Below are positions 20,808 to 64,000 of a stretch of DNA of 64,000 bases, one piece after another. The first letter of the stretch is position 1. The number at the start of each line of letters is the position of its first letter. Location of the stretch: the IMG/VR virus record IMGVR_UViG_3300028966_000062; one strand, given 5' to 3'. This DNA comes from a virus. The position numbers and the translations under genes were made by a program. The notes under the pieces were generated by a model. The model was not told the origin of the DNA. It made no database searches and saw only the letters and a list, made by a program, of their open reading frames with translations.

Positions 20808-22874
20808 ATGTCTGATTTCAAGAAATTTCGTGCACTACTGCAGGATCACTTCAATGAGATGGTGAAGGATGGCGCACCTCTGTTTATCACCAATGCAGAT
20901 GAGGATAAGCTATATGACCTCTATCTGGACAGCTTCCCGGCTGGCACGAACTCCATCTTCCGTAAGCGGCGTAAGTATGATTGCTCCTACTGCCGTCGTT
21001 TCGTAAAGAACATTGGTAAGCTGGTTTCCTTTATGGATGGTCAGATGGTTACCGTCTGGGATTTCGATACCAAGTCCGACGTTTATCAGCCGGTTGTGGA
21101 TGCGCTGGCTACTTATGTGAAAACCTGTGCTGTTGTGAATCCGTATTATGTTAGCCGCAATATGATCTCCGATGGCAAGTTCGGCACGGAGGTAAACTAT
21201 GAGTACGATGCTGATCATAAGGCGGTTCACACCTGGGATCATTTCGCTGTCGAGATTCCTCAGCGGTTCATTGTCAATTCCTGCGATGTGACTACCAAGA
21301 TGGCCGAGTGGCGTGATTCTGCTAATGTGTTCAAGCGTTCTCTGGAGGAGCTGACCATGGATGCCGTGGACACCGTACTTGAGCTGATTGCGCAGAACAG
21401 CCTGTATCGCGGCAAGGAGTTTGAATCTCTGGTTCGTGGCTTCAAAATCGATAAGCGAGTGTATGATCGTCTGCCTGATGAAAAGAAGTCCGCTTATGTT
21501 TGGATGGCTCCCGGCGGTGCGTCGATGAACCGGCTTCGTATTCGTAACACCGCTATCGGCACCCTTCTTATCAATTTGAGCGAAGGCATGGATGTGGATT
21601 CCGCCGTTACCGCCTTTGAGAAGGTTGTCGCTCCTGCCAATTACAAGCGTCCCAAAGCTATTTTCACTAAGAAGATGCTGGAAGATGCACAGAAAACCGT
21701 TACTGAGTTGGGTTACATGAACAGTCTGGGTCGCCGATTTGCCACTCTGGATGATATTACTGCCAACAATATTCTGTTCTGCAACCGCGATGCCGCTCCT
21801 CGTGTAATGGGGGCAATGAACCCGTTCGAGGCAATGGCAAAATCTATGGGCACCGATCCTAAGAAGTTCGGTCGCGCGGAGGAAATCGGCATCGACAAGT
21901 TCATCAGAGACGTGCTGCCGACTGCAACGGGCCTAGAGCTGTTTATGGAGAATCGTTTCGAGAAGAATATGATGTCTCTGATTGCTCTGCAGGATAAGGC
22001 TGCGCCGTCTATGTTCAAGTGGCCTAATGGTTTCAGTTGGGCATATACCGGCAACATGACTGACAGCCAGATTCGGGAGAACGTCAAGAATGCTGGCGGC
22101 AAAGTCGATGGCGTGCTGCGTTTCTCTATTCAGTGGAACGATAAGCCGGGCGAGTGGGATGAAAATGATGAGGATGCTCATTGCATTGAACCCGATAAGA
22201 ATCACATCTATTTCGGCAGCAAGTGGCACCCTCGTACTGATGGCCGCCTGGACGTAGATATTATGCGTCCCATTCGCTATAAGGCCGCGGTCGAGAATAT
22301 CACCTGGCCTGACATCAAAAAGATGAAGGAAGGCGAGTACAGCTTCTATGTAAACTGCTTCGCTAGTCGCGGCGGCAAAACCGGTTTCCGTGCTGAAATC
22401 GAATTCGATGGCAACATCTACTCGTTTAACTACGATAAGCCGCTGCATGGTGGTCAGAATGTAGCTGTGGCAAAGGTCACTCTGAAGGATGGCAAATTCT
22501 CTATCAAGGAACTGCTTCCCAGTTCTACCAGCACCCGTGAAATTTGGGGTGTGAGTTCCAACCAGTTCGTACCTGTGTCTGTGGCGATGTACTCTCCGAA
22601 CTACTGGGACGAACAGACCGGCAATGGCAATCGTCACTACTTCTTCATGCTCAAGGATTGCGTCAACCCCGAAAAGCCGAACGGATTTTACAACGAATTC
22701 CTGAAGGCGGAATTGCTACAGCATAAGCGAGTATTTGAGGCGCTGGGTTCTCAGATGGCAGTTCAGTCGGTAAATGATCAGCTGTCCGGCGTTGGATTCT
22801 CTGAAACGAAGCAGGATTCCTTTATTGTTAAGGTGCAGGGAGCTACTGAGCGAATTTTGAAAGTGGTTATCTGA
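20808..22874 (+). CDS. large hypothetical protein (688 aa), GC-rich codon usage unlike neighbours
   Basis: long ORF, SD AATGGAGAA; ~50 percent GC with CTG/GGC/CGT codon preference; no domain recognised. Confidence 0.7.
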   Translation: MSDFKKFRALLQDHFNEMVKDGAPLFITNADEDKLYDLYLDSFPAGTNSIFRKRRKYDCSYCRRFVKNIGKLVSFMDGQMVTVWDFDTKSDVYQPVVDALATYVKTCAVVNPYYVSRNMISDGKFGTEVNYEYDADHKAVHTWDHFAVEIPQRFIVNSCDVTTKMAEWRDSANVFKRSLEELTMDAVDTVLELIAQNSLYRGKEFESLVRGFKIDKRVYDRLPDEKKSAYVWMAPGGASMNRLRIRNTAIGTLLINLSEGMDVDSAVTAFEKVVAPANYKRPKAIFTKKMLEDAQKTVTELGYMNSLGRRFATLDDITANNILFCNRDAAPRVMGAMNPFEAMAKSMGTDPKKFGRAEEIGIDKFIRDVLPTATGLELFMENRFEKNMMSLIALQDKAAPSMFKWPNGFSWAYTGNMTDSQIRENVKNAGGKVDGVLRFSIQWNDKPGEWDENDEDAHCIEPDKNHIYFGSKWHPRTDGRLDVDIMRPIRYKAAVENITWPDIKKMKEGEYSFYVNCFASRGGKTGFRAEIEFDGNIYSFNYDKPLHGGQNVAVAKVTLKDGKFSIKELLPSSTSTREIWGVSSNQFVPVSVAMYSPNYWDEQTGNGNRHYFFMLKDCVNPEKPNGFYNEFLKAELLQHKRVFEALGSQMAVQSVNDQLSGVGFSETKQDSFIVKVQGATERILKVVI

Positions 22875-24076: not shown

Positions 24077-24161
24077 GCCAAGGTGCTGCAAATGGGAGAC
24101 AGGGCGAGCCCAAACCTCGCTGTGGAAACACATGCGGTTTCGAATACCGTCCTTGGCACCA
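24077..24161 (+). tRNA. tRNA-Leu (anticodon CAA), class II long variable arm
   Basis: acceptor GCCAAGG/CCTTGGC, anticodon arm GCGAG-CCCAAAC-CTCGC, variable hairpin TGTG-GAAA-CACA, T-arm GCGGT-TTCGAAT-ACCGT, discriminator A + CCA; position 33 is C (unusual). Confidence 0.55.
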
Positions 24162-24200
24162 GAGTCCGAATATTCATTTATTAGATGTTGGAGGCATTTT

Positions 24201-25097
24201 ATGAAAAAGATTGATAAACTTACAAAAGAAGAAATTGAGCAAGCTTTTGAGGAAAGCAAAAGTTAGGCTGCGGTTGCGGAGAAGCTTGGATATTCAAAAA
24301 ATGGTGGAAGTACGAATCACGTACTTCAAGATTGTGCAAAAGCGCACAATATAAATACTTCTCATTTCACTGGGCAGGGCTAGAATAAAGGGAACGTGGA
24401 TTTGTCTCGTTTTAAAAATGGAAGACGAATAAAGGATTTAAAATCCGCACTTCTTTCTATCAAACCATATAAGTGTGAATGTTGTGGAAACTCTGAATAG
24501 ATGGGCAAACAGATTCCATTGCAAGTACATCATATTGACGGAAACCACATAAATAATGAGTTAGACAATCTTCAGTTGCTTTGCCCGAATTGTCATGCAC
24601 AAACTGATAATTGGTGCAAAAATAATATCGGGAAATACAAGACTGTGAGCGATAAAGATTTTCTTGATGCGTTAAAAACAACATCAACTATAAATGCCGC
24701 TCTTGAAAAAGTTGGAATTTATTATTCTGCGAGAGTGTGGTATGACAAAGCAAGGCAACTAATGATTGAAAACAACGTAACTCAAATTCCACGTGAAAAG
24801 GTTATCCGTGAGAAAAAAGAAAGAAAAAGAAGAAAAATCAAATATTGTTCAATATGCGGAAAAGAAATGAGTCCGCGTGCAAAAGGATGTCTCTGTAAAA
24901 ATTGTTTAAAAGGAAATCCTTACAGTAAACGCATTGATTTTCCTGATAAAGAACAATTGATGGTAGACACAGCTTCAATGTCCTTTCAAGATGTTGGAAG
25001 AAAATATGGAGTATCAGGAAATGCCATACGTAAATGGTGCAAGTATTATGATTTACCATACAGAAAATTAGATATGAACAGTAAAGAGGAAAATTAA
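24201..25097 (+). CDS. HNH homing endonuclease with N- and C-terminal HTH-like regions; single reading frame containing three in-frame TAG codons (24264, 24381, 24498)
   Basis: KCECCGNSE-TAG-MGKQIPLQVHHIDGNHINNELDNLQLLCPNCHAQT HNH signature; no frameshift between segments; TAGs sit where conserved Trp is expected. Confidence 0.7.
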
Positions 25098-25141
25098 CGT
25101 TGATAAAAAAGAAGCTGTAAAAAAATACAGCTTCTATATAT

Positions 25142-25229
25142 GCCGCAGTGATGGAGTGACATACATTTCCCGCTTAAACCGGGACGCCTGAAATATGGAT
25201 CGTGGGTTTGAATCCCACCTTCGGCACCA
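25142..25229 (+). tRNA. tRNA-Leu (anticodon TAA)
   Basis: acceptor GCCGCAG/CTTCGGC, anticodon arm TCCCG-CTTAAAC-CGGGA, long variable arm, T-arm GTGGG-TTTGAAT-CCCAC, ACCA end. Confidence 0.6.
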
Positions 25230-25232
25230 TAT

Positions 25233-25306
25233 CGAGAACGTGGTGTAATGGTAACACGCCTGCTTTGGGAGCAGGAGTTGCAGTTCAAATCTGACGTTTT
25301 CGACCA
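25233..25306 (+). tRNA. probable tRNA-Pro (anticodon TGG), noncanonical T-stem
   Basis: acceptor CGAGAAC/GTTTTCG + A + CCA; anticodon arm CCTGC-TTTGGGA-GCAGG; T-loop TTCAAAT but only 3 bp T-stem. Confidence 0.35.
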
Positions 25307-25411
25307 GTTGGTTTCCCAACATGCTTTTCATAAAATACCTTTCCTATTATTCTTGGCTCTCCAAAAATGGAGCAATAGGACACAGCAAGCCAAGTATATA
25401 ATGCGTCGTAG

Positions 25412-25485
25412 CCAAGCGGTTAAGGCAGGGTCCTTTGAAGTCCCGATTGCGAAAGTTCGATTCTTTCCGGCGCAATTTATATGCC
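25412..25485 (+). tRNA. tRNA-Gln (anticodon TTG)
   Basis: acceptor TGCGTCG/CGGCGCA, D-arm GCC-AAGCGGTTAA-GGC, anticodon loop CTTTGAA, T-arm GAAAG-TTCGATT-CTTTC. Confidence 0.55.
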
Positions 25486-25492
25486 ACAGTGG

Positions 25493-25567
25493 TGGAATTG
25501 ACCTACACATCTATTTTAGGGGTAGACGCCGAAAGGCTTGCGAGTTTGAGTCTCGCCTGTGGCACCA
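25493..25567 (+). tRNA. tRNA-Leu (anticodon TAG)
   Basis: acceptor GCCACAG/CTGTGGC + A + CCA; anticodon arm TCTAT-TTTAGGG-GTAGA; long variable arm; T-arm GCGAG-TTTGAGT-CTCGC. Confidence 0.6.
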
Positions 25568-25666
25568 CGGTCATAGAATGGTTGCGTACCGTTTGTTGAT
25601 CTCCTTTACTATTATTCCCAGCTCGCCAGTGATGGTGCAGTAGTGTTTTGTAAGCTGGGTTTTCAT

Positions 25667-25741
25667 GCGGCGGTCGTACAACGGCTAGTACATCAGCCTT
25701 CCAAGCTGAGGATGAGGTTTCGACTACCTTTCGCTGCTCCA
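25667..25741 (+). tRNA. tRNA-Gly (anticodon TCC)
   Basis: acceptor GCGGCGG/TCGCTGC, D-arm GTAC-AACGGCTA-GTAC, anticodon arm TCAGC-CTTCCAA-GCTGA, T-arm GAGGT-TTCGACT-ACCTT, T + CCA. Confidence 0.6.
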
Positions 25742-25930
25742 ATCTCGTATGGGTAGGATCTTTGGCGGTCAGATCTGGCCGCGCCTGTGCGAGATACCAC
25801 CCCGAAAGGGGCGAGATATAGGAAATGTGCATCGCTGTTATTCCTTCCTCGTCTATATGATATAGATGCAATAGTGTTTTATAAGGAAGGTGCCCAGTTG
25901 AATAGTTGCAGCTATTTAACTGGTTTTTAT

Positions 25931-26011
25931 GGGACATTATCTCAATTGGTTAGAGAACTCAGCTCATAACTGAGCATATGTATCACGGTTCAAGTCCGAC
26001 ATGTCCCACCA
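25931..26011 (+). tRNA. tRNA-Met (anticodon CAT; initiator/elongator/Ile2 not resolved)
   Basis: acceptor GGGACAT/ATGTCCC + A + CCA; D-arm TCTC-AATTGGTTA-GAGA; anticodon arm CTCAG-CTCATAA-CTGAG; T-loop TTCAAGT with weak T-stem. Confidence 0.55.
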
Positions 26012-50452: not shown

Positions 50453-51244
50453 ATGGTAGTTAAACTGATTACACATACTCCTGATCCTGAAAAGGTGGTA
50501 GCCGCAGCCGCAAAACTGTGTTACTCCAATTCGAGTATTCAGGATTTGATGGATGGATTGACCGATGAGAAGGTTGATGAGTTTCTAAATCGACTTTCTA
50601 ACCTTGGTCACGCTAGTCCTACGGAGCATGTGACTTTTACTTTTGGAATCGAAGGTGTGAGCCGGTCTTTACTTGCCCAGATTACCCGGCATCGCATTGC
50701 ATCATTCAGTGTACAGAGTCAGCGCTATGTGCGAATGAATAATGCGGAAATCATCATTCCTGATGTTATTGACGATGATAGCGAAGCAAGAGAGGCATTT
50801 AAACAGGCAATTCAGACCGCTGAATATTCTTATAAGCACCTGTGTCAGATTCTTGAGGACAAAATTACTGAAGAACTGATGGTTGCTGATTCTCGTTTGA
50901 CTGAGAAAAAGGCACGCGTAAAAGCATCCAAGATTGCAAATGAGAACGCACGTTCTGTTCTGCCAAATGCTTGTTCCACGAAGATGATTGTTACAATGAA
51001 CGCTCGTTCGTTGAACAATTTCTTTAATCTGCGTTGCTGTGAACGTGCGCAGCCTGAAATAAAGGAGCTTGCAACCGAGATGCTAAAGCTGGTTTATCCG
51101 ATTGCTCCTCATCTGTTCAAGTGTGCTGGTCCCAACTGCTGTGGCAATGGTTGTACCGAAGGAATGATGTCTTGTGGTAAGTTCCACGAGATTCGTGATA
51201 AATACGACAAACTGAAACAGGAGGCATTAAATGGAAACACTTGA
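50453..51244 (+). CDS. thyX: FAD-dependent thymidylate synthase ThyX
   Basis: ThyX signature ITRHRIASFSVQSQRYV (RHRxxSxxxxSxR). Confidence 0.85.
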   Translation: MVVKLITHTPDPEKVVAAAAKLCYSNSSIQDLMDGLTDEKVDEFLNRLSNLGHASPTEHVTFTFGIEGVSRSLLAQITRHRIASFSVQSQRYVRMNNAEIIIPDVIDDDSEAREAFKQAIQTAEYSYKHLCQILEDKITEELMVADSRLTEKKARVKASKIANENARSVLPNACSTKMIVTMNARSLNNFFNLRCCERAQPEIKELATEMLKLVYPIAPHLFKCAGPNCCGNGCTEGMMSCGKFHEIRDKYDKLKQEALNGNT

Positions 51245-51671
51245 CGAAATTAAGAAGAACGTAGACCATCCAGTCCATTACGGCGGTGCAGACAATCCCT
51301 ACGAAGCCATTAAAGTGCTGCGAGAGTGGCAGTTGGACAAAGATGCTTATCTTTGGAATGTTGGTAAGTATCTGAGCCGGGCAGGACACAAAGATGGCAA
51401 TTCTCAGCTTCAAGATTTAACGAAGGCACGTTGGTATTTAGACTATAAAATCCGGCTTTTAGAGGAACAGCAGAAGGTTGCTGAAAGTGTCGTAGATACG
51501 CTAAAGAAGATTCCTAACGAGGTGACTGATGAGCTGACTACGATGTCGGATTACATTTCTAGTCATGCAAAGCCTGACTATACGGATGATTTGGTTTTCC
51601 GTCCAGAAATCCATGCTCCAAACATCGAAACTGCCGTGGTTCCTGATTGCGCCGATGAGGTCAAGTTTTAA
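51231..51671 (+). CDS. hypothetical protein (146 aa)
   Basis: overlapping start with thyX stop. Confidence 0.5.
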   Translation: METLDEIKKNVDHPVHYGGADNPYEAIKVLREWQLDKDAYLWNVGKYLSRAGHKDGNSQLQDLTKARWYLDYKIRLLEEQQKVAESVVDTLKKIPNEVTDELTTMSDYISSHAKPDYTDDLVFRPEIHAPNIETAVVPDCADEVKF

Positions 51672-51782
51672 TGAGAAAAAACGACGATTAGAATTATCTT
51701 TTAGCGTCAGCGATGTTCTTTATAGCTGGTGCAATAGTAGAGATAATGGTTAGAATTTTTCATTGGTAAAGGATTTACATAT

Positions 51783-51872
51783 ATGAGATACAACTGGGAA
51801 GAACCATTTGCGGCATTTGCCCTGTTTGTTACAATGTTGATTTTTGGCTTTGCCAAATTTGTTTTAAGATAA
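51783..51872 (+). CDS. tiny hydrophobic peptide (29 aa) upstream of flotillin gene
   Basis: MRYNWEEPFAAFALFVTMLIFGFAKFVLR; weak SD. Confidence 0.2.
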   Translation: MRYNWEEPFAAFALFVTMLIFGFAKFVLR

Positions 51873-51888
51873 TCAAGGAGAAAAATAC

Positions 51889-53412
51889 ATGAATATGATG
51901 TTTATTGCAATTCCTGTCGTTGTTGTCTTTCTGATCGCCTTTGCATTTACTTGCTATAAGAAGGCTCCTCCTACTCAGGCAATCGTCGTAACAGGTTTTG
52001 GACTGTCTAAGCCGAAAGTTATCTGTGGTCGTGGCGTGTTCGTCCTTCCGGTTATTCAGCGAGCTGACCGTCTGAATATGCGATTGCTCAAGATTGATGT
52101 CAAGACTCCTGAAACCGGTGTAAAGACTAAAGAGGGTGTTTCTCTGTGGCTGGACTCTGTTGTTACTGTTCAGGTTTACTCTGAGAACTCTACTGTAACT
52201 GATGATGAGATTAAGAGTGCCGGTTGTGAGGATGCAAAGACTTATATTAGTGCTCGTCAGCAGGCTGCTATTTCCAACTTCCTTGGCATGAGTGAAGATG
52301 GCATTAACGAAAAGATCAACGATGTCCTTCAGGGCAATCTGCGAGAGATTGTTTCTGAGATGACTGTCAATGATATCCTGACCAATCGTAAACAGATGGC
52401 AATTTCCGTTGTTGAGAATGCTCGTCCTGATTTAGCAAAGATGGGTCTGGAAGTTGTTACTTTCAATGTTCAGGATATTAAGGATGCTATTGATGCTCAG
52501 GGTCATAATCATGGTGTCATTGAGGCAATTGGTGTTCAGCAGGAAGAGCTGGTGAAGAAACAGGCAGAGATTGCTAAGGCCGAAGCCGCTCGTGATATTG
52601 CTCGTGCTAAGGCGGATACTGCTCGTGAATCAAATGAAAAGGAAATTGAATCCAAGACCGCTATTGCACAGCGCAACAATGAGTATCTTCTGACTCAGGC
52701 CGCTCTGAAGGCGGAGGCTGATAAGGCAAATGCTGATGCAGAAGCTGCTGGTGAGATTCAAATGAATCTGCGTGATAAGGAAATTAAGGAAGCTGAAGCT
52801 GACGCAGCTATTGCAAAGCAGAAGAAGATGGTTGAGTTGGCCGCTCAGGAAGCAGAAGTTCGTCAGCAAAAGCTGGATGCGGAGATTCGCAAGCAGGCAG
52901 ACGCCGACCTGTATAAGCGTCAGAAGGAAGCTGAAGCAAAGAAGTACGAAGCAGAGCGTTCTGCAGAATCCGCAAAGTTCGCTAAGGAACAGGAGGCAGA
53001 AGGCATCCGTATGGTTGGCATGGCGGAAGCTGAGGCCATCAAGCAGAAGGGTCTTGCTGAAGCAGAAGCTATGCTGAAGAAGGCTGAAGCTTACAAGCAG
53101 TACAATGGTGCGGCTATGGGTGAAATGATCATTAAGATTCTTCCTAGCATTGCAGCTGAGGTTGCAAAGCCGCTGGCGTCCATTGACAAGGTTTCCATCA
53201 TTGGCAGTAACGCAAATGGTGTTTCTGAGATTTCCGGCAATGTCCCAGCAGTCATGGCTCAGACTTTTGAGGCCGTTCGTGAAGCAACTGGCATTGATAT
53301 GAAGGAAATTGTCCGTGCCAACAGTTACGATGCAAAGGTCACTAAGAATGTGAACCTTGTAAGCGATTCGACGATTGTTTCTGAAAAGAACGATGCGCAG
53401 GATGCTGAGTAA
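51889..53412 (+). CDS. SPFH/band-7 flotillin-like protein
   Basis: N-terminal TM IAIPVVVVFLIAFAF, SPFH core, long Ala/Glu coiled-coil (AEAEA repeats) typical of FloT/flotillin. Confidence 0.75.
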   Translation: MNMMFIAIPVVVVFLIAFAFTCYKKAPPTQAIVVTGFGLSKPKVICGRGVFVLPVIQRADRLNMRLLKIDVKTPETGVKTKEGVSLWLDSVVTVQVYSENSTVTDDEIKSAGCEDAKTYISARQQAAISNFLGMSEDGINEKINDVLQGNLREIVSEMTVNDILTNRKQMAISVVENARPDLAKMGLEVVTFNVQDIKDAIDAQGHNHGVIEAIGVQQEELVKKQAEIAKAEAARDIARAKADTARESNEKEIESKTAIAQRNNEYLLTQAALKAEADKANADAEAAGEIQMNLRDKEIKEAEADAAIAKQKKMVELAAQEAEVRQQKLDAEIRKQADADLYKRQKEAEAKKYEAERSAESAKFAKEQEAEGIRMVGMAEAEAIKQKGLAEAEAMLKKAEAYKQYNGAAMGEMIIKILPSIAAEVAKPLASIDKVSIIGSNANGVSEISGNVPAVMAQTFEAVREATGIDMKEIVRANSYDAKVTKNVNLVSDSTIVSEKNDAQDAE

Positions 53413-53423
53413 GAGGTGATTAC

Positions 53424-55625
53424 ATGGAATATGTGATTAAACGCGATGGAACGAAAGTCCCTTTTGATAAAAGTAAGATTGTGAATGCAGTCGAGAAGGC
53501 GATGACCTGTACACCGGGTGGTATCGACGTTCGTGTGTCGAATGCGATTGCTGACTATATCGCAGACATGCCGGGCATTCTTTCTGTTGAGCAGATTCAG
53601 GATATCGTAGTGGACAGTCTAGCAAATAGCCCGTTTATTGACGTTGCAAATGCATATAGTCAGTGGCGGCAGTATCGTCAGGAAATTCGAGATAAAGAGA
53701 AAACCAACGCAAGTATTCTTGAAATTCTTGATGCCCAGAACGACGCAATCAATCAGGAAAACAGTAATAAGAACGCAACCATCAATAGCACGCAACGTGA
53801 TTACATGGCCGGAGAGGTATCTAAGGAACTAACTGACAGACTTCTACTTCCAAAGGATATCCGAGATGCACACAAAAGTGGTTTAATTCATGTGCATGAT
53901 AAAGATTATTTTGTGATGCACTGCCATAATTGCGATCTGGTCAATCTTGAAGATATGCTCCAGAACGGCACCGTCATCTCCGGCACCTATATTGAAAAAC
54001 CTCACAGCTTTTCCACCGCCTGCAACATTGCCACCCAGATCATTGCACAGGTAGCTTCGATGCAATTTGGAGGTCAGAGTATTACACTTTCACATCTGGC
54101 TCCATTCGTAGATGTTTCCCGCAAGAAGATCACAAGTGAAGTACACCAAGAATTTTACGAGATGGTTCAGAATAATGAAATCGATAAGATGCCGGAGTCT
54201 GAAACTATCAATCGAATTGTAGAAGAGCGTTTACATAAAGAAATTGCTCGTGGCGTGCAGACCATCCAGTATCAGGTCGTCACTTTGATGACGACAAACG
54301 GTCAGGCCCCTTTTATCACTGTGTTTATGTACCTCGATGAAGTTCCAGAAGGTCAGACTCGTGATGATTTGGCTCTAATTGTTGAAGAAGTGTTAAAACA
54401 GCGCATTCAGGGTGTAAAGAATGAAGTTGGTGTATGGGTCACTCCGGCCTTCCCAAAGCTCATTTATGCTCTTGATGAGGATAACATTCATTCTGATTCT
54501 AAGTATTATTACCTGACTGAGCTGGCAGCTAAGTGTACTGCCAAGCGAATGGTTCCTGATTATATTTCCGCAAAGGTTATGAAGGAGCTTAAAGGCGGTG
54601 TGTGGCCTAGCATGGGCTGTAGATCCTTCCTTACTCCTGACCGCACCACTGAGAACGTAGCTAATGCCAAGAATTGGGTTAAGGGGCATAAGTATTATGG
54701 CCGCTTCAATCAGGGCGTCGTGACCATCAATCTGGTGGACGTGGCTTGCAGTTCAGAAGGGGACAAGGATAAATTCTGGAAAATCTTCGATGAACGACTC
54801 GAATTGTGTCATCGAGCTCTACAGATTCGTCACAAGCGTCTACTCGGCACTCCTTCTGATATGGCCCCTATCCTGTGGCAGTACGGTGCATTAGCTCGTC
54901 TAAAGAAGGGCGAGAAGATCGACAAGTTGCTCTTCGGCGGCTACTCCACCATCAGCCTGGGTTATGCCGGTCTGTATGAGTGTGTGAAGTATATGACCGG
55001 CAAGAGCCACACCGATCCTGATGCTAAACCTTTTGCTCTCGAAATTATGCGGCACATGAATGATAAGTGTAACGAGTGGAAGGCCGCTGAAAACATCGAT
55101 TACTCTCTGTATGGTACTCCTTTGGAGTCCACTACATATGAATTTGCACGTTGCTTGCAGAAGCGGTTTGGTATGATTCCAGATATTACTGACCATGACT
55201 ACGTAACAAATTCTTATCATGTCGTTGTCCGTGAACATATCGATGCTTTCACTAAGCTAAAGTTTGAGAGCGAGTTCCAGAAGCTTTCTCCAGGAGGGGC
55301 GATTAGCTATATCGAGGTGCCAAATCTGCAGCAGAACATTCCTGCGGTGCTTAGTGTTATGCAGTTCATTTACGACAACATCATGTATGCGGAGCTGAAC
55401 ACCAAGTCCGACTACTGCCAGTGCTGCGGCTACGACGGCGAAATTAAAATTGTAGAAGATGAGAAAAACCACAAGCTTGTATGGGAGTGCCCGAATTGTG
55501 GTAATCGTGACCAGAACAAAATGAATGTCGTAAGACGTACTTGTGGTTACCTGGGAACCAATTTTTGGAATCAGGGGCGCACTCAGGAAATTCGAGATCG
55601 AGTGGTTCATTTGAGCGACAATTAA
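53424..55625 (+). CDS. nrdD: anaerobic ribonucleoside-triphosphate reductase NrdD (class III)
   Basis: N-terminal ATP-cone VIKRDGTKVPFD, C-terminal Zn ribbon CQCCG...CPNCG and glycyl-radical motif RRTCGYLG. Confidence 0.9.
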   Translation: MEYVIKRDGTKVPFDKSKIVNAVEKAMTCTPGGIDVRVSNAIADYIADMPGILSVEQIQDIVVDSLANSPFIDVANAYSQWRQYRQEIRDKEKTNASILEILDAQNDAINQENSNKNATINSTQRDYMAGEVSKELTDRLLLPKDIRDAHKSGLIHVHDKDYFVMHCHNCDLVNLEDMLQNGTVISGTYIEKPHSFSTACNIATQIIAQVASMQFGGQSITLSHLAPFVDVSRKKITSEVHQEFYEMVQNNEIDKMPESETINRIVEERLHKEIARGVQTIQYQVVTLMTTNGQAPFITVFMYLDEVPEGQTRDDLALIVEEVLKQRIQGVKNEVGVWVTPAFPKLIYALDEDNIHSDSKYYYLTELAAKCTAKRMVPDYISAKVMKELKGGVWPSMGCRSFLTPDRTTENVANAKNWVKGHKYYGRFNQGVVTINLVDVACSSEGDKDKFWKIFDERLELCHRALQIRHKRLLGTPSDMAPILWQYGALARLKKGEKIDKLLFGGYSTISLGYAGLYECVKYMTGKSHTDPDAKPFALEIMRHMNDKCNEWKAAENIDYSLYGTPLESTTYEFARCLQKRFGMIPDITDHDYVTNSYHVVVREHIDAFTKLKFESEFQKLSPGGAISYIEVPNLQQNIPAVLSVMQFIYDNIMYAELNTKSDYCQCCGYDGEIKIVEDEKNHKLVWECPNCGNRDQNKMNVVRRTCGYLGTNFWNQGRTQEIRDRVVHLSDN

Positions 55626-58594: not shown

Positions 58595-59608
58595 TTGAAA
58601 GGATGTGATTTTATAGACTCAAAAGATGTGTTAAAAACCGAATCTGAGCCAGTAGGTTATATTTATATTACAGAAAATTTAGTTGATGGAAGAAAATACA
58701 TAGGCCAACATCATTCAAAAGAATTCGATCCATATTATAAAGGATCTGGAAAAATATTAAAACAGGCATTTGATAAATATGGATTTAGTAACTTTAAAAC
58801 GACGATTTTGGAATGGTGCTACTCGGATGAGGAACTAAACGAAAAAGAACGTTATTGGATAAAAGAAAACAATGCAGTAGAAGATAGATTATTTTACAAT
58901 ATTTTGCCGGGTGGTCTTGGTGTTCAGATGTTTGGGCCAGACAATCATATGTATGGAAAGCACCATACAGAAGAAGCAAAAGAAAAAATGTCAGATGCTT
59001 TGAAGGGGAAAATGGCAGGAGAGAATAATCCAATGTATGGAGTCCATCTTACATACACTCAAGAACAAAAAGATAAAATGAGCGAACGAAACAAACGAAT
59101 GGGGAGATGGGTAGGAGAAGATAATCCTTGGTATGGAAAACCATCACCATTTAAAGGGAAAAAACGTAGTGAAGAGTGGTGTAAGAAATCTTCTGAAGCT
59201 CACAAAGGAATTCACCCTAATATTTCAGAAGAAACAAGAGCTCGTTTAAGTAAAATGCGAAGCGAATGGATGTCTGGAGAGAAAAACCATTGGTATGGGA
59301 AAAGAGGGGCAGAACTTCCATGGTATGGGAGAAAAAAGACACCGGAAGAGATAGAAAAGCTAAGACAAGCAAGTTTAGGAAAGAGAAAAGGAAAAGATAA
59401 CCCCGCATCTAAGCCTATCTATTCAATGGACGGAAGGTATTTGTTTTGGACAATACAAGAGGTGGCTGACTTTTTAGGAAAGACATACGGGCAAGCAAGA
59501 CATGCAATCGACCATGAAAAACAAGTTGACTGTAACGGAGAACAAATAATTTTCACAAGAGACAAATCTAAAGTAAAGGAGAAGAATTTTCAGGATGAAC
59601 TACGCTAA
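58595..59608 (+). CDS. GIY-YIG homing endonuclease with four NUMOD3-like repeats
   Basis: GYIYITENLVDGRKYIGQH (GIY...YIG); repeated N(H/N)xYGK...KxKMS modules; start codon uncertain. Confidence 0.8.
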   Translation: MKGCDFIDSKDVLKTESEPVGYIYITENLVDGRKYIGQHHSKEFDPYYKGSGKILKQAFDKYGFSNFKTTILEWCYSDEELNEKERYWIKENNAVEDRLFYNILPGGLGVQMFGPDNHMYGKHHTEEAKEKMSDALKGKMAGENNPMYGVHLTYTQEQKDKMSERNKRMGRWVGEDNPWYGKPSPFKGKKRSEEWCKKSSEAHKGIHPNISEETRARLSKMRSEWMSGEKNHWYGKRGAELPWYGRKKTPEEIEKLRQASLGKRKGKDNPASKPIYSMDGRYLFWTIQEVADFLGKTYGQARHAIDHEKQVDCNGEQIIFTRDKSKVKEKNFQDELR

Positions 59609-62569: not shown

Positions 62570-62762
62570 AGAATTAGGGTTTTATAAAGACCAAACAGAA
62601 TATTATAAAAGATCAATCGAAGATCTACTGCACCATTATACTGATAGCTGTGGCATGTGTACGGTTAATTTAGATTGCAGTGAATGCGTTGTTGATGGTT
62701 TTATCAATCAGCTACGAAATATTCTGTATAGTAGTAGTGAGTATAAAGGAGAAAACATATGA
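62547..62762 (+). CDS. hypothetical Cys-rich protein (71 aa)
   Basis: CGMC...CSEC. Confidence 0.35.
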   Translation: MVLNLDGKELGFYKDQTEYYKRSIEDLLHHYTDSCGMCTVNLDCSECVVDGFINQLRNILYSSSEYKGENI

Positions 62763-63169
62763 AGCTGCTTTTACAGTCTAATGGAGGATTTTCTGGATTC
62801 TATAGTAGATTTATTTTGATTGATACAGACCTACACAAAATGGTAAAAACGGATAGCCTCATGAAAGATGGTCTAACTGGAATAAAATATATTTGGGACT
62901 ATATCGATAATGAGAAGATTCCAGATATTGATGATTTTGGTAAATCTCTTTGTCAGGATTTCAATTATGATATTTCATTACTTGAATGTTTTTTACCGAC
63001 CGCCAAAGTTGTCACTAATGAGTCCATCATAATGAACGACATCAATTATGATGTTTATCTATCATCTGAAAACGTTCCGTACAGAAAGTTCAGATTGAAT
63101 TCTTCATCATATCTTGAAAATGACGCTCTCAGCGCAAAGCTTAGGAAACTATTTCAGACATTCTTATAA
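62759..63169 (+). CDS. hypothetical protein (136 aa)
   Basis: ATGA overlap. Confidence 0.45.
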   Translation: MKLLLQSNGGFSGFYSRFILIDTDLHKMVKTDSLMKDGLTGIKYIWDYIDNEKIPDIDDFGKSLCQDFNYDISLLECFLPTAKVVTNESIIMNDINYDVYLSSENVPYRKFRLNSSSYLENDALSAKLRKLFQTFL

Positions 63170-63181
63170 AGGAGACTCACA

Positions 63182-64000
63182 ATGATTATTGACTGCAAAT
63201 CTATCGCACAGGATATCAAAAATAAAATCAAGAATGTCATCGCAGAAGATGACTATGCTCCTATTTTACATATTTATCAAGTAGGGGACAACCCTGCATC
63301 CAATGCTTATATTCGCGGCAAGCTGCGTGACTGTGAAGAGGTTGGAATCGGAGTGGAGCTTGTCAAACTGCCAGAAAATATTACCGAAGATGAATTGAAC
63401 AACAAGATCTTAGAAGATTATAATTGGGAATATGTGGACGGTATCATTGTTCAGCTTCCGTTGCCAAAACATATCGACCCTAAAAATATTTGTATTCCAG
63501 ATGAACTTGACGTTGATGGCTTTAATTCTACATCTAAATTTCAGCCCTGCACTCCGCTGGGCGTTATGAAGATTTTTGACTCCATCGGTTACGATCTGGA
63601 TGGCAAGAATGTACTCGTATGCGGTCAATCTGATATTGTTGGTCGTCCGCTGGTTGATATGCTGATTAAACGGCACTGTAATGTGATCTCTGTGAATAGC
63701 ACGGGTTCCCGCATGAAGGCCACTACTCTTGGATTTGAAATGGTCGATGTGGTCATCTCTGCTGTGGGCAAGCGCAACTTTATCACACCGTTTGGTCTTG
63801 ATCGGGTTGAAGTCTGCATCGATGTTGGCATCAACTATGACGAGAACGGAAAGCAACACGGCGACTGTGCCGATGATATTTATGAGATGGAAGATATCAA
63901 AGTAACCCCTCGTATCGGCGGAGTTGGCCTTATGACACGTGCTATGCTACTTTACAATGTATGTGTGGCAAGGTATGGAGAAGAGAAGATGGAGAGGTGA
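63182..64000 (+). CDS. folD: bifunctional methylenetetrahydrofolate dehydrogenase/cyclohydrolase FolD
   Basis: YQVGDNPASNAYIRGK, VQLPLPKHID, CTPLGVMKI, GGVGLMT motifs. Confidence 0.8.
   Translation: MIIDCKSIAQDIKNKIKNVIAEDDYAPILHIYQVGDNPASNAYIRGKLRDCEEVGIGVELVKLPENITEDELNNKILEDYNWEYVDGIIVQLPLPKHIDPKNICIPDELDVDGFNSTSKFQPCTPLGVMKIFDSIGYDLDGKNVLVCGQSDIVGRPLVDMLIKRHCNVISVNSTGSRMKATTLGFEMVDVVISAVGKRNFITPFGLDRVEVCIDVGINYDENGKQHGDCADDIYEMEDIKVTPRIGGVGLMTRAMLLYNVCVARYGEEKMER

Follow-up and report, generated by a model that had tools for sequence, protein, structure and literature searches.

The window considered here is the whole 64,000-nucleotide stretch of viral DNA recorded in IMG/VR as IMGVR_UViG_3300028966_000062. 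It encodes a 507-residue protein of the flotillin family. The gene is real and, judged from its sequence, almost certainly functional, and the pattern of substitutions among related phages points to strong purifying selection. The element that carries it is an integrated temperate prophage of Faecalibacterium prausnitzii. We put at roughly 55% the probability that the protein is a flotillin of host lineage that was retained and serves as a functional membrane scaffold in the phage cycle. The finding reveals no new kind of molecule or mechanism, and flotillins of phages have been annotated before; its worth is in the strong selection signal, the identification of the host as F. prausnitzii, the recurrence of flotillins in abundant large gut phages, and the natural comparisons with and without the gene.

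The flotillin and its relatives

The features of the gene and of the predicted protein are as follows.

51889..53412, + strand: flotillin gene, FloT-type, 507 residues (open reading frame (ORF), Pfam Band_7 and Flot, FloT model, flotillin-1 match, ratio of nonsynonymous to synonymous substitution rates (dN/dS))
51895..51954, + strand: predicted hydrophobic N-terminal membrane anchor, residues 3-22 (MMFIAIPVVVVFLIAFAFTC), followed by YKKAPP (hydropathy; helix at residues 4-24 in a low-confidence AlphaFold2 model)
51961..52587, + strand: SPFH / Band_7 domain, residues 25-233 (Pfam PF01145, 2.7e-19)
52534..53088, + strand: Ala/Glu/Lys-rich helical (coiled-coil) region, approximately residues 216-400 (50-residue composition windows, predicted helices, collinearity with flotillin-1)
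53008..53244, + strand: Flot C-terminal flotillin domain PF15975, residues 374-452 (Pfam 6.9e-8, 33.1 bits, cut-off 27)

An initial annotation of this DNA had proposed a 507-residue protein with an N-terminal anchor, an SPFH domain and an Ala/Glu-rich coiled coil, preceded by a 29-residue ORF. Both ORFs were placed exactly and both are on the + strand. Pfam, NCBIfam and PDB matches and the hydropathy profile agree with the proposed architecture, to which a Flot domain can be added. The Band_7 match (E = 2.7e-19, 70.3 bits against a cut-off of 23.6) and the Flot match (E = 6.9e-8) are both above their gathering scores, which rules out assignment to a different coiled-coil family without an SPFH core. 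The NCBIfam FloT model NF058507 aligns end to end, with residues 6-477 on positions 5-474 of 477, at a score of 255 bits, which is under the equivalog cut-off of 700; by this threshold the protein belongs to the flotillin family and is not a FloT equivalog. An exhaustive HMMER search returned 3635 cluster representatives at E ≤ 0.001, many of them full-length at 35-45% identity, which is what any ordinary protein of a large family would give.

The best match among PDB sequences (phmmer) is human flotillin-1 (9l3g_A, E = 5.3e-49), with residues 27-489 of the phage protein collinear with chain residues 6-434, apart from an extra segment at about residues 106-128 of the phage protein. The only segment in which the 19-residue hydropathy exceeds 1.6 is residues 1-26, with a maximum of 2.78 at residues 4-22 (MFIAIPVVVVFLIAFAFTC), and this is the predicted membrane anchor. 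Over residues 201-400 there are 18-23 Ala and Glu per 50 residues, including AEAEA-type motifs; the low-confidence AlphaFold2 model has helices at residues 208-298 and 308-429, and the region is collinear with the coiled coil of flotillin-1. The mean predicted local distance difference test score (pLDDT) of this monomer model, made from a 20-sequence alignment, is 49. The fold was therefore taken from sequence homology to solved flotillins, and the model was not used for fold searches. At the level of sequence, the flotillin features that were looked for, namely anchor, SPFH domain, Ala/Glu-rich coiled coil and Flot domain, are all found.

The same order of N-terminal anchor, SPFH domain, Ala/Glu-rich heptads and Flot domain is seen in FloT (YuaG) of Bacillus subtilis, which is under the control of sigma-W (PMC8581546). 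The phage gene has no yuaF-type NfeD gene upstream. The only solved template is provided by human flotillin-1 and flotillin-2 (PDB 9l3g, 9bq2), which form a dome of 44 subunits (PMC13000311) and are collinear with the phage protein from the SPFH domain to the C-terminal domain. They differ from it in having a hydrophobic hairpin and acylation and in forming a 1:1 hetero-oligomer, while the phage protein has a single hydrophobic helix, at its N-terminus, and the extra segment noted above. HflK/HflC, which with FtsH form a membrane cage of the SPFH superfamily, provide the classic link between SPFH proteins and the lysis-lysogeny decision of phages; the window protein is unlike them, since it has the Flot domain and is matched best by flotillins. 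Other SPFH proteins and flotillins encoded by phages are likewise N-terminally anchored and often located in early or replication regions (PMC1524935, PMC13239085). The ORFs of T4-like and Vi01-like phages (phrog_200) match in the SPFH domain only.

There are 15 related viral contigs in IMG/VR, with sizes of 11-141 kb. When the distribution of homologues in related phages was checked, as the initial annotation had suggested, the flotillin was found in 13/13 distinct relatives, always between the genes for DUF3310 and NrdD and at 94-100% identity. Pairwise dN/dS values are 0.03-0.06, with dS up to 0.8, and the SPFH domains of the most divergent pair have 2 nonsynonymous against 66 synonymous differences. 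All domains are covered by this selection, and there is no truncation or domain loss among the relatives. The sequences thus argue for strong purifying selection in the phage lineage, and contradict the suggestion that the gene is a functionless passenger from a bacterial chromosome. Such a passenger would fit with an accessory insertion that is absent from a syntenic relative (see below), but the low dN/dS comes with near-saturated synonymous divergence, the codon composition is fully adjusted to the phage, and the gene has been kept in every distinct relative as well as in several independent phage lineages. We therefore regard this explanation as extremely improbable.

The initial annotation also described the codons as GC-rich, like those of three other genes of the window including one of 688 residues. 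The gene is indeed richer in GC than the window (46.5% against 41.0%), but the GC content at third codon positions (GC3) is ordinary, at 0.433 within a range of 0.39-0.51 for the neighbours. The excess is located at first positions (GC1 of 0.604), in Ala, Glu, Asp, Gly and Val codons, and is thus explained by amino acid composition and not by a shared foreign signature. The 688-residue gene (window 20808-22874; phrog_1735, function unassigned, E = 1e-248) differs, with a GC3 of 0.585, clearly above the 0.38-0.51 of every other window gene measured. Across flotillins, GC3 is 0.74-0.88 in the bacterial copies, 0.42-0.47 in the phage lineage of the window (0.43 in the window copy) and 0.42-0.64 in phage copies overall, each copy being near the composition of its own genome. 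On this basis the capture of the gene is old at the nucleotide level, with the protein still approximately 80% identical.

Outside the lineage, the next matches in a collection of 5.8 billion proteins are hundreds of proteins at 73-79% identity. The clade defined by at least 77% identity consists of chromosomal genes of Gemmiger and Subdoligranulum and of genes from at least two other lineages of large or jumbo gut phages. The chromosomal copies are from Gemmiger formicilis ATCC 27749, a metagenome-assembled genome of Subdoligranulum variabile and a Gemmiger sp., and have ordinary metabolic and transport neighbours (transporters, glycosidases, thiamine genes). They (for example WP_417348274.1) are 78-80% identical to the phage copy over about 470 residues and have the same architecture and length, with no adjacent NfeD in either. 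The phage-side copies are on IMG/VR contigs of 68-389 kb and on phage-like metagenome contigs, and one phage cluster is represented on 1000 contigs or more, the largest of 382 kb. Flotillins of jumbo gut phages (loci L016, L020, L022 and L077) are 77-80% identical to the window protein. The next bacterial tier, flotillins of rumen Clostridia, has only 50-57% identity.

In a neighbour-joining tree the window lineage is a separate clade (100% bootstrap). The clade of Gemmiger and Subdoligranulum is placed with that of the jumbo phages (88%), and a third lineage (L017 with L026/L027) joins these two (90%). The phage flotillins are therefore not monophyletic, and at least two transfers between bacteria and phages are implied. 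Two further gut phages, csAssE-Sib and MT835492.1, have full Band_7 plus Flot flotillins which are only 27-34% identical to the window protein, and whose sequences indicate independent acquisition. Full flotillins of this kind are found in at least five lineages of large gut phages. The GenBank entry for that of csAssE-Sib (WOZ57345.1) reads "flotillin family protein", and a protein identical to that of the window is public as DAR53562.1, "MAG TPA: hypothetical protein [Caudoviricetes sp.]", and is named "flotillin" in IMG. The initial annotation called a flotillin in a phage replication region unusual; the gene does lie among replication and nucleotide-metabolism genes, but in view of these lineages and existing annotations the word was too strong.

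The flotillins of the jumbo-phage group (L016, L020, L064-L075) have a C-terminal extension of 40-60 residues, for example ...EDGWMFHEKDPITGEDKTSFRPDFTDEEKATMDAH... (alignment columns about 590-657), which neither the Gemmiger copies nor the window protein have. It could be a phage-specific interaction tail.

Divergence from the G. formicilis protein is very uneven. Identity is 90-94% in the SPFH domain (excluding the variable insert at residues 106-128), 69-81% in the coiled coil and 71% in the C-terminal domain; apart from the tail (11%), the anchor is the least conserved part (46%). This pattern bears on the idea that the phage flotillin acts as a hijacking or poison subunit, which co-assembles or competes with SPFH complexes of the host and so disables or re-targets microdomains. 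By analogy with HflK/C and lambda CII, its targets might include the FtsH-dependent turnover of phage regulators, or else membrane-acting abortive-infection effectors. The 90-94% identity of the SPFH domain to that of a related bacterial flotillin makes mixed assembly plausible, the diverged anchor and tail and the extension in the jumbo-phage copies could be read in the same way, and both HflK/C and the flotillins of B. subtilis are known to act as SPFH controls on FtsH (PMC3892786). Against this, all domains are under strong purifying selection with none truncated or lost, no close flotillin for co-assembly was found in the host genus (see below), and there is no match to a defence or anti-defence family, the flotillin, the 29-residue ORF and DUF3310 having no hits among the PADLOC defence-system models. 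The idea is thus decidedly unlikely.

The carrier prophage and the insertion site

The flotillin gene is bordered as follows.

51231..51671, + strand: DUF3310 gene, left border of the slot (Pfam PF11753, 2.3e-11)
51875..51880, + strand: AAGGAG Shine-Dalgarno sequence of the flotillin, 8 nt before the ATG and 2 nt past the stop of the 29-residue ORF
53424..55625, + strand: NrdD (anaerobic ribonucleotide reductase), right border of the slot (Pfam NRDD 5e-192, ATP-cone, Gly_radical)

The large ORFs of the window, all of them on the + strand, code for a DnaE-like polymerase, helicases, primase, RecJ, ligase and methyltransferase, together with ThyX, DUF3310, NrdD, NrdG, dUTPase, FolD and recombinases, and there are seven tRNAs. 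An exact look-up of the window ORF at 62759..63169 led to contigs of 161-616 kb, in which FolD is followed by a Tn916-type Xis, a 388-residue tyrosine integrase and then bacterial genes (carboxyltransferase, oxaloacetate decarboxylase, YicC, RemA, Gmk and PriA). The GC content steps from about 0.39 to about 0.62 at the junction between the integrase and the bacterial genes, and proteins encoded in the flank match exactly the F. prausnitzii entries AXA80926.1, CBK98233.1 and CBK98231.1. The window is therefore part of a large temperate prophage integrated in F. prausnitzii. Its size, estimated at about 135 kb, was derived from IMG/VR contigs (124-141 kb) together with the places of genes on a bacterial contig of 163.6 kb. 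The junction was seen at the right end (about 11.2-12.9 kb in loci L094-L098, beyond the right end of the window), where no tRNA was found. Between the integrase gene and the carboxyltransferase gene of the host, the same loci have a direct repeat of about 30 nt, ATATAGACTTA..GAGATTTGCATAGA. Gemmiger had been considered as the host on the basis of flotillin similarity, and was dropped because the junction shows F. prausnitzii. Compared with the Gemmiger gene, the phage copy is therefore in a prophage of a different genus.

The prophage provides the setting for a second explanation, lysogenic conversion, in which the flotillin would be expressed in the lysogen and would either supply a scaffold that Faecalibacterium otherwise lacks or change the envelope so that other phages are excluded; the host would benefit, and through it the prophage. 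Integration as a temperate prophage fits with this. So does a motif scan. Two motifs shared without variation by all 20 sequences of the clade alignment were sought in 185,579 species-representative genomes; close homologues turned up in Gemmiger and Subdoligranulum and none in Faecalibacterium, which hints, as an indirect test of absence, that Faecalibacterium has no flotillin of this clade.

The position of the gene is also relevant. In MT835556.1, a more distant relative, the order is ligase...ThyX-DUF3310-NrdD-NrdG-dUTPase...FolD with no flotillin, and NrdD follows DUF3310 after 17 nt. The comparison marks the flotillin, at the level of sequence, as an accessory cassette inserted between DUF3310 and nrdD, and its place among nucleotide-metabolism genes is consequently an insertion site and not a conserved functional linkage. 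An inserted accessory cassette is what lysogenic conversion would predict, as is the use of the slot directly upstream as a hot spot for ORFs of small membrane proteins and for a LemA cassette (see below). On the other hand, the flotillin is co-directional with nrdD, which starts 11 nt after the flotillin stop, and so is surrounded by genes of the lytic cycle. No promoter or terminator that could be its own stands out from chance: over 49.5-56.5 kb the matches are fewer than or equal to those in shuffled controls, and are uninformative on a separate transcription unit. It is about 10 kb from the Xis/integrase end, which is not the classic position of a moron, and it matches no PADLOC defence family. 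Given also that the lack of a flotillin in the host depends on the indirect motif scan, we consider lysogenic conversion to be possible but on balance doubtful.

The comparison with MT835556.1 likewise affects the proposal that a flotillin patch tethers replication, the dNTP-synthesis machinery or virion assembly to the membrane. A microdomain for replication or assembly was among the suggestions of the initial annotation, and the gene neighbourhood does agree with it: in this lineage the flotillin lies between ThyX/DUF3310 and NrdD/NrdG/dUTPase, and the flotillin of csAssE-Sib is also among helicase and exonuclease genes. The link is nevertheless weak, since the adjacency is the result of insertion into a pre-existing block which in the relative runs ThyX-DUF3310-NrdD. 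In other phage lineages the neighbours of flotillins are different and mostly unassigned, and no difference from the chromosomal flotillins suggests a new client-binding module in this lineage. A replication or assembly platform is for these reasons very unlikely.

The simplest reading of the gene spacing is that the flotillin is co-transcribed with lytic-cycle genes. Its start is 16 nt after the stop of the 29-residue ORF, and its Shine-Dalgarno sequence is kept in 15/15 relatives.

Several other features of the locus and of the carrier were noted. In locus L022 (5422-5892), the gene directly upstream of the jumbo-phage flotillin encodes a 156-residue double zinc ribbon protein (DZR_2, 3.9e-7). 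It is reminiscent of YdjG, a membrane protein that works with the SPFH protein YdjI in the pspA operon of B. subtilis (PMC8581546). Upstream of the window start, on the opposite strand, is a divergent arm (L099 and L100 1-1290) that encodes a 927-residue protein with a PF05183 RdRP-type domain, which may be a YonO-like phage RNA polymerase with two barrels. In combination with the temperate lifestyle, the size of about 135 kb and the DnaE-like polymerase, this protein presumably recalls the SPbeta-like phages.

The window has a homing-endonuclease-like gene of 337 residues (58595-59608) that overlaps the start of nrdG by 14 nt, and a 198-residue HNH endonuclease gene (24501-25097) within the cluster of seven tRNAs (24077-26011). 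FolD (63182-64000) is 92% identical in protein sequence to FolD of MT835556.1 (L090 12458-13270), while ThyX (35%), NrdG (57%), dUTPase (52%) and ligase (63%) are far more diverged between the two, which suggests either recent exchange of folD or an unusual constraint on it. NrdD has 733 residues in the window, 1024 in the sister phage L006 (9536-12610) and 1000 in MT835556.1 (L090 5606-8608); the latter two contain an intein-like extra insertion of about 290 residues in the catalytic domain, which the window NrdD does not have.

The 29-residue ORF and the LemA cassette

The region between DUF3310 and the flotillin contains the following.

51671..51769, + strand: second small hydrophobic ORF, a remnant broken by TAG at 51689-51691
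51768..51773, + strand: AAAGGA Shine-Dalgarno-like motif, 9 nt upstream of the 29-residue ORF (read from the sequence)
51783..51872, + strand: 29-residue hydrophobic ORF (MRYNWEEPFAAFALFVTMLIFGFAKFVLR), which fills a variable cassette slot

The length of the 29-residue ORF is not beyond chance when considered alone, there being 86 ORFs of at least 25 residues in 7.5 kb. It is intact in 13/15 related loci (L009 has a frameshift and in L006 it is replaced), its relatives have GAGG at the same spacing as its Shine-Dalgarno motif, and its counterpart on a 431-kb contig (L096) was called as a 31-residue gene by a public pipeline. There are nine alleles in the relatives, with 1-2.5 synonymous and 0-4 nonsynonymous differences per allele, and because the substitutions are so few, purifying selection on this ORF is not demonstrated.

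The initial annotation compared the ORF to NfeD-type partners of flotillins. In common with NfeD and LemA it has a small membrane-spanning product directly upstream of an SPFH gene, but it is a single helix with neither domain: it has no match in Pfam (including LemA, PF04011), NCBIfam, PHROG or PADLOC, and 29 residues are too few for the soluble domain of NfeD. Nor was NfeD found beside the flotillin in the window, in the phage flotillin loci scanned with Pfam, or on inspection of the ORFs flanking the G. formicilis gene. The comparison with NfeD was thus mistaken, and the ORF is better described as a predicted small membrane peptide.

A different origin is suggested by the sister phage L006, in which the flotillin is 97% identical and has the same neighbours, but the slot is occupied by a LemA gene (PF04011, 9.7e-34) and a gene for a 268-residue protein with two transmembrane (TM) helices. 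Window positions 51774-51797, comprising the spacer and the first five codons, are identical to the start of the L006 LemA gene (24/24 nt); similarity ends after these 24 nt and resumes at the ribosome-binding site of the flotillin. The N-termini of phage LemA proteins and the 29-residue ORF (MRYNW..P) have in common a pattern of NWxxP followed by a TM helix. A relationship of the ORF to the N-terminal anchor of LemA is therefore probable, if only slightly more so than not, and it would be at most a remnant or alternative and not a LemA protein, namely one among several membrane-peptide cassettes that can fill a slot prone to recombination. The second small ORF is intact in L010 and L014 (32 residues, MRKNDDWNYLLASAMFFIAGAIVEIMVRIFHW), which have TGG where the window has TAG, and L006 and L007 have a different hydrophobic ORF of 28 residues at this site (MRNENDTYLIF...). 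To judge from these sequences, the spacer between DUF3310 and the flotillin is a hot spot for ORFs of tiny membrane peptides.

The L017/L018 element, which is unrelated, likewise has before its flotillin a pair formed by LemA and a protein of about 250 residues; the two are 52% and 40% identical to their L006 counterparts. Jumbo phages have the pair with no flotillin next to it. The loci of the pair are L006 6707-7988, L017 6158-7489 and L087 4436-5747. Its second protein (about 250-268 residues) has N- and C-terminal TM helices and a middle section that is predicted to be β-rich (AlphaFold2, pLDDT 85), the 268-residue protein being modelled through its 94%-identical relative P0271. The family has no Pfam match, and Foldseek gave no fold match in the PDB (best E = 0.011, TM-score ≤ 0.17). 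In L017 (GCA_027682645.1) the order is LemA, a 254-residue protein, a 120-residue protein and the flotillin. The cluster of L017-type flotillins (cluster of P0021) includes WP_118655660.1, from a 173-kb contig of the cultured isolate Clostridium sp. TM06-18, a possible experimental isolate for the LemA-flotillin module.

A bolder interpretation is that Faecalibacterium lacks a flotillin of this clade and the prophage supplies one, and that the flotillin, alone or with LemA and the 268-residue protein, is a phage module for membrane remodelling that has spread among large gut phages, including a jumbo phage of about 350 kb present on at least 1000 contigs. We hold this to be speculative and unlikely. 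If it were true, phages would control membrane compartments of their own, which would shield the membrane of the infected cell from premature collapse or alter the lysogen envelope of a key human commensal.

Proposed role and significance

The reading that we favour is the one stated at the outset, in which a flotillin of the host lineage serves as a membrane scaffold during the phage cycle. The gene ends 11 nt before nrdD, with which it shares the strand, and no terminator separates the two; it is therefore most likely expressed together with the nucleotide-metabolism genes; it would thus be made with early or middle genes after induction or infection. The protein would oligomerise on the cytoplasmic face of the membrane to form a ring or cage, which would fence off a patch of membrane as other SPFH proteins do. 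In this way the phage would provide the infected cell with flotillin activity or raise what is there, so that membrane organisation is maintained or reshaped and membrane fluidity and integrity are kept, and client membrane proteins such as FtsH would go on functioning while the large phage completes its long cycle.

This proposal is consistent with the properties of flotillins elsewhere. Flotillin forms a membrane-attached dome of 44 subunits (PMC13000311; bioRxiv 10.1101/2024.05.09.593390). Overproduction of flotillin in B. subtilis stabilises FtsH and alters division and differentiation (PMC3892786). The sigma-W regulon, a response to membrane stress that includes floA and floT, is induced by various stresses, one of which is phage infection (PMC8581546). 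Mentions of SPFH domains in phages go back to 2006 (PMC1524935), and the reason for their presence there has been called unclear (PMC13239085).

A number of points weigh against the proposal. The physiological role of bacterial flotillins is itself debated. Searches of the literature gave annotation-level mentions of phage flotillins and SPFH proteins, and no functional study of them or of a link between LemA and flotillin was found. Expression in the lytic phase is deduced from gene spacing, and an accessory gene of a prophage may equally be expressed in the lysogen. Both fold and cage are predicted from homology, given the pLDDT of 49. The variation of neighbouring genes between phage lineages means that the context points to no consistent functional partner.

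It is worth adding why a phage flotillin should be of interest. Bacterial flotillins are proteins in search of a clear function, and a phage copy under such strong constraint offers a handle on them. The host of the carrier, F. prausnitzii, is among the most abundant and health-associated of gut bacteria, and several other abundant large gut phages, as well as its sister genera Gemmiger and Subdoligranulum, have close copies. The gene provides a natural system of gain and loss, with lysogen and cured strain, and relatives with and without the gene, in which function is testable. More generally, a gene for a membrane scaffold has been exchanged repeatedly between gut Ruminococcaceae and their phages.

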